Part shown: piece after piece, positions 4,585 through 31,776 of the stretch
Layout of the letters: every line of letters begins with the position of its first letter
Position numbering within the stretch: position 1 is the first letter of the stretch
From: Opitutales bacterium
Lineage (GTDB): Bacteria; Verrucomicrobiota; Verrucomicrobiia; Opitutales; PNEW01
DNA: 32,000 nt
NCBI GenBank assembly: GCA_965219535.1
Contig: CBDCNV010000002.1
Span: 2,190,001 to 2,222,000 of the forward strand
Direction: 5' to 3'
Program-made: the position numbers and the translations under genes
The notes under the pieces: model-generated
The model's input: the letters and a program-made list of their open reading frames with translations, nothing else
Database searches by the model: none
What the model was told of the DNA's origin: nothing

Positions 4585-4835
4585 TTGTCATTGCGAGGAG
4601 CAACACGACGAAGCTACCGAGCGCAGCGACATCTTACACTCCAGGTGAATGTCTGTTGTATGAAGTAGGTCCCTTGGTGTTAGGATTAATTCTCAACCGA
4701 TCGTATACTTAATTTTGAGACGAACCCTCATTGGATAGATTTGAGCGGAAATTGGTTTTCGTAGGCATAATGACTATTTGCCTGGAATGGAAGATGTCGC
4801 TGTGCTCGGTAGCCGCGCTTCGCTCGCAATGACAA
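4585..4835 (+). repeat. Miniature copy (251 bp) of the GIY-YIG element: two long inverted arms around a decayed, internally deleted gene relic
   Basis: The left arm is TTGTCATTGCGAGGAGCAACACGACGAAGCTACCGAGCGCAGCGACATCTTACACTCCAGGTGAATGTC. The right arm, read as reverse complement from 4835, is TTGTCATTGCGAGCGAAGCGCGGCTACCGAGCACAGCGACATCTTCCATTCCAGGCAAATAGTCATT. The interior segment 4730-4787 aligns to 24531-24588, the 3' end of the intact gene plus its right arm. Confidence 0.85.
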
Positions 4836-4990
4836 AAGGAATATTACGAAAATTAGTATTATTTATGATATCCGCTAGGAAAAATCGCTTCCTCCCACGA
4901 GTGATAAGGACCCACTCTCGGAAGCGTCTTTTCCACGAAACATATCACGGGATAACATACAAGGGCGAAGCCCGACATCTTCCAAATCAG

Positions 4991-6058
4991 CTACCGAGGC
5001 GAAGCTCGACATCCCTCATTGTCTATCTCCTGCAACTTGAACCGGACACTCACCACAGACTGCTTTTCCGGTCCCGGTCTGTACTTGATATAGGTCGTGG
5101 CTACCAAGGTGTCGTCGGGCAAGAGCTCCAACCCCGGGTATCCACAGTCGTGCGCCTTTTCTTCATCGTAACTGTGCAGTAGTTTGATGCGATACTGACC
5201 CTCCCGACAGTTGCGCAGGTCTTGATACGTACCCACCCAGGCTACAAAATGTCCCCAGGTCGGGCTATTGGCAGTCCTGTCTCGAAAGCAAATGACGAGA
5301 CGACCGTCCGAGGCGTAGCGCGGTTGGTGGCGGTCGCCCGTGATCGTGCGGTTGAGCTCCACGGGGGGAGTCCACGATTCTCCTTCATCATCGCTGAACA
5401 TAGCGAGCGAGCGGCATTTCATGCTGCCGTTAACCCGCAACACACAGGTAATTTCACTCCCCTCGGGTGAGCGTACGAACGCAGGTTCGCACGGCTTTGA
5501 ATCAGGAAATTCCCCGCCGCTCGTGAGAAGCAATCGCTCTGGTCCCCAGGTCAGCCCTCCATTCTCTGAGATGCTCAGAAAAGTTGAGCCATCTCGATTC
5601 CAGGCACCCAACAATCGGTCTTGAGAAATCTCTATAACCGTCGTGAAGGGCATGGTTGTTTTCAGCCCATTTTCTTCGAATGGTGTCCATGTCTGACCCG
5701 CATCTACCGACATGGCTTGACGCATTTTACCCTCGCCCTCAAAAATGAAGAGCCGTTCAACATTGTCCGGTCCAACAAAACGGTAGAGGGCAGGGCAATT
5801 GTTCGCAGTAATCCAGTTCTCCGGGACGGGCAGTGGATCTGTCCATATCATTCCGCCATCGTCACTGCGACAGAGCACAGCAGACGGTCTCCCGTGTCCT
5901 AATGGGTACACACAATAGATTGTCTTTCCATCTGGCATCAAAAGGGTAGTTGGATGTCCCTTGTAACTTTCACTCGTGCCCTGCGCTACTATTACGTGAC
6001 GCCTCGTTTCATGGGAGATATCGATCATAGGAATATTGAAGGGTATAGTTTCCGTCAT
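4991..6058 (-). CDS. BNR/Asp-box repeat protein (sialidase-like beta-propeller glycosidase family)
   Basis: Four Asp-box motifs are present: SDDGGMIWT, SVDAGQTWT, SENGGLTWG and SDDEGESWT. The track ORF starts at a TTG (6094). I prefer the ATG at 6058, which is preceded by GAGAGGAG. No signal peptide is seen. Confidence 0.8.
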   Translation of the reverse strand: MTETIPFNIPMIDISHETRRHVIVAQGTSESYKGHPTTLLMPDGKTIYCVYPLGHGRPSAVLCRSDDGGMIWTDPLPVPENWITANNCPALYRFVGPDNVERLFIFEGEGKMRQAMSVDAGQTWTPFEENGLKTTMPFTTVIEISQDRLLGAWNRDGSTFLSISENGGLTWGPERLLLTSGGEFPDSKPCEPAFVRSPEGSEITCVLRVNGSMKCRSLAMFSDDEGESWTPPVELNRTITGDRHQPRYASDGRLVICFRDRTANSPTWGHFVAWVGTYQDLRNCREGQYRIKLLHSYDEEKAHDCGYPGLELLPDDTLVATTYIKYRPGPEKQSVVSVRFKLQEIDNEGCRASPR

Positions 6059-6183
6059 TTGAATCTCCTCTCTCTTAAACAACTTCGGTTCCAATATTCA
6101 GTCTGCATAATATTGGGGAAAAGAAATTGAACCTTGAATCCGGTTGGGGCTTTCTCAGCATTTCATGCCAGTGGAAATTGCAC

Positions 6184-14740: not shown

Positions 14741-15013
14741 TTGTCATTGCGAGGGAGGCTATCAGCTGACCGCGGCTACCGAGTCCCGCAACTACGGGAC
14801 GACATCTTCCATTCTAGGCGAATAGTCATTGTGCTTACTCTTACCAGTCACATGGTAAATCTTTCCAATGAAGGTTCGACTTTTAATCAAAACATTACTC
14901 ATCTGAGGATTAACCTTAACATCTGCGGGTCTACATAACGAAACAGACATCCCCCCGAGTGGAAGATGTCGCTGCGCTCGGTAGCTTCGTCGCTTTACTC
15001 CTCGCAATGACAA
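14741..15013 (-). repeat. Miniature copy (273 bp) of the GIY-YIG element, opposite orientation
   Basis: The termini are AATTGTCATTGCGAGG and CCTCGCAATGACAATT. Both arms carry GCTACCGAG...CGACATCTTCCA. The interior is collinear with copies 4585-4835 and 31538-31776 when reverse-complemented. One arm carries a 16-nt hairpin, TCCCGCAACTACGGGA (14784-14799). Confidence 0.85.
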
Positions 15014-24169: not shown

Positions 24170-24192
24170 AGTGTAATTGCATCGCGCCCCTA

Positions 24193-24621
24193 TTGTCATT
24201 GCGAGGAGCAACGCGACGCGGCAATCCAGAAATTTTGGATTAACCATTGCCACATATAAACCGATTTAATACATGTGCGCAATGTGTATTACGTTTACAT
24301 CCTCACCAGTAAGCGTAATGGAACACTTTACACTGGTGTCACCTGTAGTTTATTTCGTCGCTTATGGGAACATAAAAATAAATTTAAGGAAGGGTTTACC
24401 AAGAAATACAATATACAAAGGCTGGTATATCACGAATCCTTTTATGATATTCAAAATGCTATCGTACGTGAAAAGCAAATTAAAGCCGGATCGAGAAAAA
24501 AGAAGATTGCTTTAATTGAAGCAGAGAACCCCCATTGGAAAGATCTGAGCGGAGACTGGTATTCGTAAAACAATGACGATTCGCCTGGATTGCTTCGTCG
24601 TGATGCTCCTCGCAATGACAA
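24193..24621 (+). mobile_element. Candidate autonomous GIY-YIG element: a single GIY-YIG gene bounded by about 37-bp terminal inverted repeats
   Basis: The left arm at 24193 is TTGTCATTGCGAGGAGCAACGCGACGCGGCAATCCAG. The reverse complement of the right end, from 24621, is TTGTCATTGCGAGGAGCATCACGACGAAGCAATCCAG, matching at 33 of 37 positions. The same termini bound four other repeat copies in the window. Mobility is inferred, not shown. Confidence 0.6.
24275..24568 (+). CDS. Small GIY-YIG nuclease family protein (COG2827 / UPF0213-like)
   Basis: The 97-aa product reads VYYVYILTSKRNGTLYTGVT (GIY...YIG), then RRLWEHK, FTKKY, LVYHESF and REKQIKAGSRKKKIALIEAENPHWKDL. It has a GTG start. The ORF is intact, unlike the relics in the miniature copies. 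Confidence 0.85.
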   Translation: MRNVYYVYILTSKRNGTLYTGVTCSLFRRLWEHKNKFKEGFTKKYNIQRLVYHESFYDIQNAIVREKQIKAGSRKKKIALIEAENPHWKDLSGDWYS

Positions 24622-24646
24622 ATGGGGAGGCACGTGCCCTCCATTA

Positions 24647-31537: not shown

Positions 31538-31776
31538 TTGTCATTGCGAGCGAAGCGAAGCAACCCAGGGGGATGTCGGTTGCGTAAGTAAAGTCTCAGG
31601 GTGTTAGGGTTTACTCTCACTTGAACGTATGCCTAACTTGAACAGATGAACCATCATGGGAAAGACTTGAGTGGTTCCTTTTATTCGAATGCAAAATGAC
31701 AATTCGCCTGGAATGGAAGATGTCGCTGCGCTCGGTAGCCACGTCTCCCGCTGTTGCGGGATCCTCGCAATGACAA
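31538..31776 (+). repeat. Miniature copy (239 bp) of the GIY-YIG element with one short and one long arm
   Basis: The left arm, TTGTCATTGCGAGCGAAGCGAAGCAACCCAGGGGGATGTC, is the short type found beside the intact gene. The right arm, read as reverse complement from 31776, is TTGTCATTGCGAGGATCCCGCAACAGCGGGAGACGTGGCTACCGAGCGCAGCGACATCTTCCATTCCAGGCGAATTGTCATT. The interior TAACTTGAACAGATGAACCATCATGGGAAAGACTTGAGTGG aligns with TAATTGAAGCAGAGAACCCCCATTGGAAAGATCTGAGCGG of the intact gene. Confidence 0.85.

Follow-up and report, generated by a model that had tools for sequence, protein, structure and literature searches.

The 251-base element at positions 4585-4835 of the window, by which we mean the whole 32,000-nucleotide stretch of DNA that was analysed, is probably a non-autonomous, non-coding and MITE-like derivative of an Ssn-type nuclease cassette. 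We suggest that a progenitor without the gene was copied to intergenic sites and that its copies, including the one described here (copy A), then decayed neutrally. A discrete unit, bounded by arms and carrying a remnant of the nuclease gene, was multiplied; it avoids genes and is without target duplication. The window belongs to a 4.47-Mb genome of Opitutales (Verrucomicrobiota), called G000 below. Comparisons were made with G001, which is from the same genus, and with G003, which is from another genus.

Structure of copy A and its match to the intact cassette

The window also holds an intact cassette, the sole one of its type in the genome, which is presumed to be the source of the enzyme acting on the arms. 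Its 97-aa protein matches PF01541 over residues 5-77 (E 5.5e-11) and has no second domain. The arms of the cassette are inverted, 24187-24229 being 86% complementary to 24585-24627, and the same bracketing of the gene is found in relatives and in many phyla. The parts of copy A, two sister miniatures and the cassette are placed in the window as follows.

4585..4614, plus strand: outer part of the left arm, TTGTCATTGCGAGGAGCAACACGACGAAGC, agreeing at 29 of 30 bases with the right arm of the intact cassette
4615..4637, plus strand: nested micro-repeat of the left arm, TACCGAG-CGCAGCG-ACATCTTAC, at the position between GC and AATCCAGG of short arms
4638..4645, plus strand: inner end of the left arm, ACTCCAGG, where short arms have AATCCAGG
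4646..4708, plus strand: left interior, common to the miniature family, its first ~20 nt like the inner repeat of the 105-137-nt elements
4709..4764, plus strand: remnant of the nuclease gene, the last ~19-20 codons and the stop, in register (L)NFETNPHWIDLSGNWFS and then stop
4765..4786, plus strand: remnant of the 3' untranslated sequence of the gene, doubling as the inner part of the right inverted repeat, GCATAATGACTATTTGCCTGGA
4789..4811, minus strand: nested micro-repeat of the right arm, TACCGAG-CACAGCG-ACATCTTCC as read on this strand
4812..4835, minus strand: outer part of the right arm, TTGTCATTGCGAGCGAAGCGCGGC as read on this strand, with a middle-segment type different from that of the left arm
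14741..15013, minus strand: sister miniature of 273 nt in the opposite orientation, its interior and junction as in copy A
24193..24621, plus strand: intact cassette, with short arms at 24193-24229 and 24585-24621 and the 97-aa GIY-YIG gene at 24275-24568
31538..31776, plus strand: sister miniature of 239 nt, with the same interior and junction

The termini of copy A are TTGTCATTGCGAG and CTCGCAATGACAA, the end being the reverse complement of the start, and they agree with the span proposed in an earlier note on this DNA. In that note the element was taken to be a miniature, gene-less relative of the GIY-YIG cassette. This view is upheld by the terminal repeats, by the remnant of the 3' end of the gene and by the long-type arms, which are capable of forming a hairpin; the evidence of decay that was offered, namely the stop codons, does not hold. 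A global alignment of copy A (4585-4835) with the cassette (24193-24621) scores 81.5 against 19.5 +/- 5.4 (z 11.5), so that the score is far above, and not merely as good as, those of the 300 dinucleotide shuffles used as controls. When the arms are removed, local alignment of the interior gives 39 of 46 identical positions (z 17.9). The alignment of two 58-nt strings drawn earlier by hand, with about 47 of 58 positions matching, was reproduced, while its coordinates were 1-3 nt off, as the strings begin at 4729 and 24533.

The coding frame of the remnant had been described as riddled with stops, reading LIG*I*AEIGF (asterisks are stops). That frame is one base out of register with respect to NPHWKDLSGDWYS. 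In register, positions 4702-4764 read RILNFETNPHWIDLSGNWFS followed by TAG, with 10 of 13 residues identical to NPHWKDLSGDWYS and the stop at the same position. In copy A, stops in the frame of the remnant occur only upstream of 4695, where the sequence has no counterpart in the gene. What makes copy A non-coding is the absence of about 75 codons, the start and the promoter region, and not stops; the frame of the remnant is open. No credible ORF was found inside the element.

The right 78 nt of the interior of copy A are derived from the end of the gene. The 63-65-nt left interior was compared by local alignment with six intact cassettes on both strands, and no match was found (z < 1). Since the left interior has no match in the cassette, a description of copy A as an internal deletion of the cassette covers the right half only. 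Two candidate origins of the left interior were rejected. The 5' end of the gene (the YVYILT region) was ruled out with z below 1 against the six intact cassettes, and an inverted duplicate of the right interior (z ~1, p ~0.16) was ruled out beyond the first ~20 nt.

As to the distribution of the cassette itself, the site in G001 that is orthologous to it (L012, G001:C1:2795900-2796500) is without a cassette and another repeat is found there. Two intact cassettes are present elsewhere in G001, with proteins that are just 77-82% identical, and G003 has several intact cassettes.

Probable multiplication and neutral decay of the gene-less family

There are 182 arm termini in G000 when at most 1 mismatch is allowed, and 73 elements are formed by paired termini. 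The paired elements fall into size classes of ~105-110, 128-137, 190-294 and 338-429 nt, and ~17 of the mid-sized ones have a match to the final ~80 nt of the cassette's interior. In a multiple alignment, ~12 gene-less copies, including copy A, have in common the whole interior and one junction between the ~65-nt left part and the gene remnant. The flanks of the 12 copies are unrelated, save for a few matches to other repeats nearby. The same interior is found in other genomes, with at least 6 copies in G003, and it is present in G001. One miniature copy is orthologous in all three genomes (G000, G001 and G003), and several are orthologous in G001 and G003.

In the family consensus, LIEETNPHWKDLSGDWYS and the stop after it are restored, and the remnants of the copies, translated in register, yield the C-terminal peptide of the gene. 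The consensus remnant (78 nt) is 90-92% identical to the living cassettes of G000, G001 and G003 (73/79, 72/78 and 71/79), and the remnant of copy A itself is 80-81% identical to them. Copy A is 81% identical to the family consensus and at most 79% identical to any sister. The interiors of the copies have a mean pairwise identity of 66%, with a maximum of 79%, and since no pair is closer than this there is no sign of recent activity. Substitutions from the consensus amount to 20, 20 and 23% at the three codon positions (chi-square p 0.64), and this equal substitution points to neutral decay. Just 1.4% of the element bases lie in ORFs of at least 200 aa, against 76% genome-wide. Because the interior and junction are shared, the flanks are unrelated, the consensus is close to living genes and the divergence is even across codon positions, comparison of the copies indicates a single gene-less progenitor, which would have arisen from a working gene, multiplied before the genera split and undergone neutral decay ever since. 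Within this family, copy A is old.

The sites of insertion were analysed in the same genomes. Target-site duplications were sought as direct repeats of 3-8 nt, and no excess was found among 169 offset pairs in 71 elements. Just upstream of each arm there are 6 bases rich in pyrimidines, in which G does not exceed 4%. For copy A no clean empty site was found, the matches of relatives to its left flank being paralogous surface-protein loci. Among these paralogues (C1:1632145 in G000, G001 and G003) the homology of the left flank ends within 2 nt of 4585, the outer terminus, and copy A is therefore at a rearrangement or duplication breakpoint; its right flank (4836-4965) is unique. For the sister copies, the joined flanks of 68 elements were searched in two batches, both against G001 and G003 and the first also against G002, with 40 candidates scored per genome. 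These batches gave orthologous filled sites and messy or rearranged sites, with no clean empty site among the matches listed.

Explanations other than copying of a gene-less progenitor have to be set against these data. The arm-bounded segment could have spread with the dispersed arms serving as sites of recombination, homologous or illegitimate, for instance once DNA had been taken up, with no element-specific copying; the model for this is the exchange that is thought to occur in Neisseria for segments flanked by dRS3/NTS. We consider such a course unlikely. The outer end of copy A is where the homology of the paralogous surface-protein locus stops, which recombination would explain, and it would also be in keeping with the lack of detected target duplications, with the left and right arms of one element being mosaics of different middle-segment types, and with the gain or loss of arms by deletion in relatives. 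However, 12 copies with one junction and unrelated flanks require repeated, precise placement at intergenic sites that are free of arms, and recombination between existing arms does not supply such placement. In addition, recombination would tend to homogenise the copies, whose mean identity is just 66%. It is less probable still that a full cassette once occupied the site of copy A and was stripped of its gene there. Copy A does have both arms and a genuine remnant of the gene's 3' end, as such a leftover would, but ~12 copies in this genome, and others in other genera, share one junction and one 63-nt left interior that is not gene sequence. Independent deletions in place would not yield a shared junction, and the left interior is missing from all six intact cassettes examined, so this explanation is contradicted.

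We also find it highly improbable that the element has been kept for a function in the host, as a structured transcript, a terminator or an mRNA-stabilising hairpin between the BNR and surface-protein genes. The long hairpin expected in the earlier note is indeed predicted, the arms pairing over ~65 nt when the whole element is folded (DNA -56.3 kcal/mol, z -7.9), and the minus-strand RNA gives a very stable fold (-100.4 kcal/mol, z -9.3). The strictly intergenic position would also suit such a function. Against it, there is no U-run after the hairpin on the transcribed (minus) strand, and a scan for promoters and terminators found nothing within copy A. The sole terminator-like site (4572-4556) is outside the element, in the conserved leader of the surface-protein paralogues. 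The Rfam families gave no match, the evolution of the interior is neutral, the middle segments of the two arms are unpaired with each other in the fold, and an IS interrupts the downstream gene. Nothing found here supports a role as terminator or stable RNA.

Comparison with Ssn and other repeat systems

Copying of a gene-less progenitor raises the matter of the enzyme, for which the closest model is SsnA of Neisseria meningitidis, a 94-aa single-domain GIY-YIG enzyme (Chenal et al., Nat Commun 2025, PMC11893778). SsnA binds the NTS hairpin repeat (CGTCATTCCCGCG..GCGGGAATCYRG) only when this DNA is single-stranded, and cuts upstream of the repeat at a distance of a few bases; the ssnA gene has inverted repeats on both sides, and hundreds of copies of the repeat are intergenic (PMC11893778). 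The unit of repeat, gene and repeat was likened there to an insertion sequence, with mobility as a hypothesis only, and the text of that paper makes no mention of gene-less derivatives or MITEs (PMC11893778). A search of the literature on GIY-YIG with MITE, REPIN or palindromic elements turned up no account of such derivatives.

In both systems the protein has a single GIY-YIG domain and ~94-97 aa. Residues Y8, Y19 and E66 of the cassette protein, which are invariant across five homologues, have the spacing (11 and 47 residues) of the catalytic Y6, Y17 and E64 of N. meningitidis SsnA. As in Ssn, the gene lies between inverted copies of a repeat that is also present in high copy, scattered and almost exclusively intergenic, and the sequence immediately beyond the repeat, at which SsnA cuts, varies. 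The arm resembles NTS at its two ends, with GTC-ATT.. at the start and ..AAT-C-YRG at the finish, and only the outer motifs GTCATT and AATCCAG are in common. Cutting and binding depend most on the GTC that precedes ATT.. and on the C that follows ..AAT (PMC11893778). Homologous nuclease genes of many phyla are bracketed by GTCATTSCGAR, with one copy upstream on the plus strand and one downstream on the minus strand. Such genes are found at L037, L043-L046, L053, L054, L061-L063, L073 and other loci, in Patescibacteria, Spirochaetota, Gastranaerophilales, Pseudomonadales and other groups.

The arms of the cassette are unlike NTS in that they are longer and have a variable middle of several interchangeable types. 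The published SRM pattern, HGTCWYN(0-2)YYVSBRHN(0-5)WNVSBRGN(0-2)RNCYNB, matches 0 of the termini, and its 15 matches genome-wide are at about the shuffled rate. Single arms fold at -2.7 to -6.6 kcal/mol (z -0.6 to +0.9), which is not better than shuffles. In short arms a base stem of 5 bp (ATTGC/GCAAT) is possible, and in copy A this stem is split. Unlike the single repeats of the Ssn paper, the repeats here form pairs, there is a family with a gene remnant, and arms are broken by a second, nested repeat. A protein search returned only distant UPF0213 proteins from PDB (E 3.8e-5) and nothing from NCBIfam. On the sequence likenesses above, we treat the cassette as a putative Ssn-type system with a divergent, modular repeat.

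The family can also be compared with REPIN-RAYT systems (Bertels and Rainey 2011, PMC3116915). As in these, a single-copy enzyme gene is flanked by repeats, and there are numerous intergenic, gene-less inverted doublets, with no target duplication and with long vertical persistence (PMC3116915). Unlike in REPIN-RAYT, the enzyme between the arms is a GIY-YIG hydrolase and not a Y1 HUH transposase, and REPINs, unlike this family, are without remnants of the RAYT gene. The genome has four PF01797 matches, and neither the arms nor the nested unit flank them, the Y1-family genes having other repeats at their sides. The likeness to MITEs lies in the small size, the lack of coding capacity, the terminal inverted repeats, which are those of the coding element, the interior, which comes partly from that element, and the many dispersed copies of the same structure at unrelated sites. 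Unlike in MITEs, there is no target-site duplication and the partner is a small nuclease rather than a known transposase, and, unlike in an IS-derived MITE, the right half of the interior alone can be traced to the coding element.

We infer that the copying depended in trans on the nuclease of the cassette. By analogy with Neisseria SsnA, the nuclease would bind each arm as single-stranded DNA, and would nick a few bases outside the arm, in the G-poor pyrimidine tract. The nicks at the two ends would then fall on opposite strands. GIY-YIG enzymes hydrolyse and form no covalent intermediate, so that joining, or the completion of copying, would be left to the replication or repair of the host. 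Joining by the host is consistent with the lack of target-site duplications.

More broadly, we tentatively raise the possibility that Ssn cassettes are, now or once, true transposable elements that spawn miniatures, with movement that is driven by the nuclease, free of target-site duplication and joined by the host, and with ends that host a nested unit that may disable them. If true, a ~95-aa GIY-YIG single-strand nuclease would be the driver of a class of mobile DNA in bacteria, and the end repeats of that DNA would be the landing site of a smaller (23-35 nt) mobile hairpin unit. The 2025 Ssn paper left the mobility of the unit open, and the gene-less family is comparative evidence of past movement as a unit. 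The family also supplies natural substrates, in which short arms can be set against arms that are split by the nested unit. The contribution is modest but real comparative evidence for mobile cassettes with non-autonomous derivatives.

The nested micro-repeat and neighbouring loci

The nested unit of the long-type arms consists of (C/G)TACCGAG, a short hairpin and GACATCTTCC. It is 23-35 nt long and has 136 copies in the genome, 55 of which are at one fixed site of the arm, between GC and AATCCAGG; the others are elsewhere, including in heptamer satellites. In copy A it corresponds to the extra segment that had been noticed in both arms and is absent from the intact copy (4615-4637 on the plus strand and 4789-4811 on the minus strand), and the length of about 26 nt given for that segment is made up of 23 nt and 2 altered bases. 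Elements or flanks that are otherwise ~99% identical in G000 and G001 may differ by this unit, which one genome has and the other lacks as a block with sharp limits, as in the following three cases.

C2:460107 (within C2:459890-460179): nested unit of 34 nt, in G000 only, compared with L016 (G001) and L111 (G003), the G003 outgroup being also without the unit
C2:591761 (within C2:591419-591817): nested unit of 28 nt, in G000 only, compared with L017
Next to C1:46645 (within C1:46538-46745): nested unit in G001 only, compared with L125

Since these blocks were gained or lost between orthologous elements that are ~99% identical, the nested unit is judged to be more active than the miniature family and of much later origin. 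No association of the unit with Y1 transposase genes or GIY-YIG paralogues was found in the genome. Small dispersed repeats with hairpin units of ~24-35 nt within other repeats were reportedly described by Elhai et al. in 2008 from heterocystous cyanobacteria. The nested unit is like the cyanobacterial repeats in being a very short hairpin unit at fixed sites in other repeats, with sharp present/absent blocks, and is unlike them in its sequence and in the phylum of its host.

In copy A, both arms are split by the 23-nt unit exactly between the GC and the AATC that close the base stem of the repeat. Because both arms are split at the closing GCAAT-C, and in view of the mutational data of the Ssn paper, the arms of copy A would probably be poor substrates for the nuclease.

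Copy A is probably an inert relic, and an effect on its neighbours is not evident. The neighbours are those named earlier, with a BNR/Asp-box gene on the minus strand (4991-6094) to one side and, to the other, an Ig-like surface-protein gene of which the N-terminal fragment, cut off by an IS3-family element, is the adjoining part. An ORF of 134 aa on the plus strand (4778-5182), which starts within the right arm and lies in antisense to the BNR gene, can almost certainly be dismissed as spurious. For annotation, such relics matter in that they give spurious ORFs of this kind and flag rearrangement breakpoints. At 4961-5020 of the window, the 3' end of the BNR gene is overlapped by partial and complete copies of the nested unit (GGGCGAAGCCCGACATCTTCC and GCTACCGAGG), and it is inside one of these copies that homology with the orthologue in G001 sets in.

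Other small nuclease or transposase genes of G000 were also seen beside repeats. At L114:1200-2250 (G000 C2:935500-936550) there is a 158-aa Y1 (IS200/RAYT-like) transposase gene (PF01797, E 1e-29), with its own repeats on both sides (CACCCAACGGGTGCA..AGCCAGAGGTG..), which are not the same as the arms or the nested unit. After a tRNA-Asn gene at L118:1100-1850 (G000 C1:399300-400050), a different small GIY-YIG gene occurs in two tandem copies, and each copy is followed by a partial tRNA copy with a perfect palindrome and an insert. Two more small GIY-YIG genes adjoin each other at L121:1147-1930 (G000 C1:1630860-1631640). The second of these is followed by a perfect palindrome of ~60 nt (GGTCAGGCTCTGCATTC.GACATA...), half of which is also found before the gene, and this palindrome and the GIY-YIG gene may form a separate pair of nuclease and repeat.
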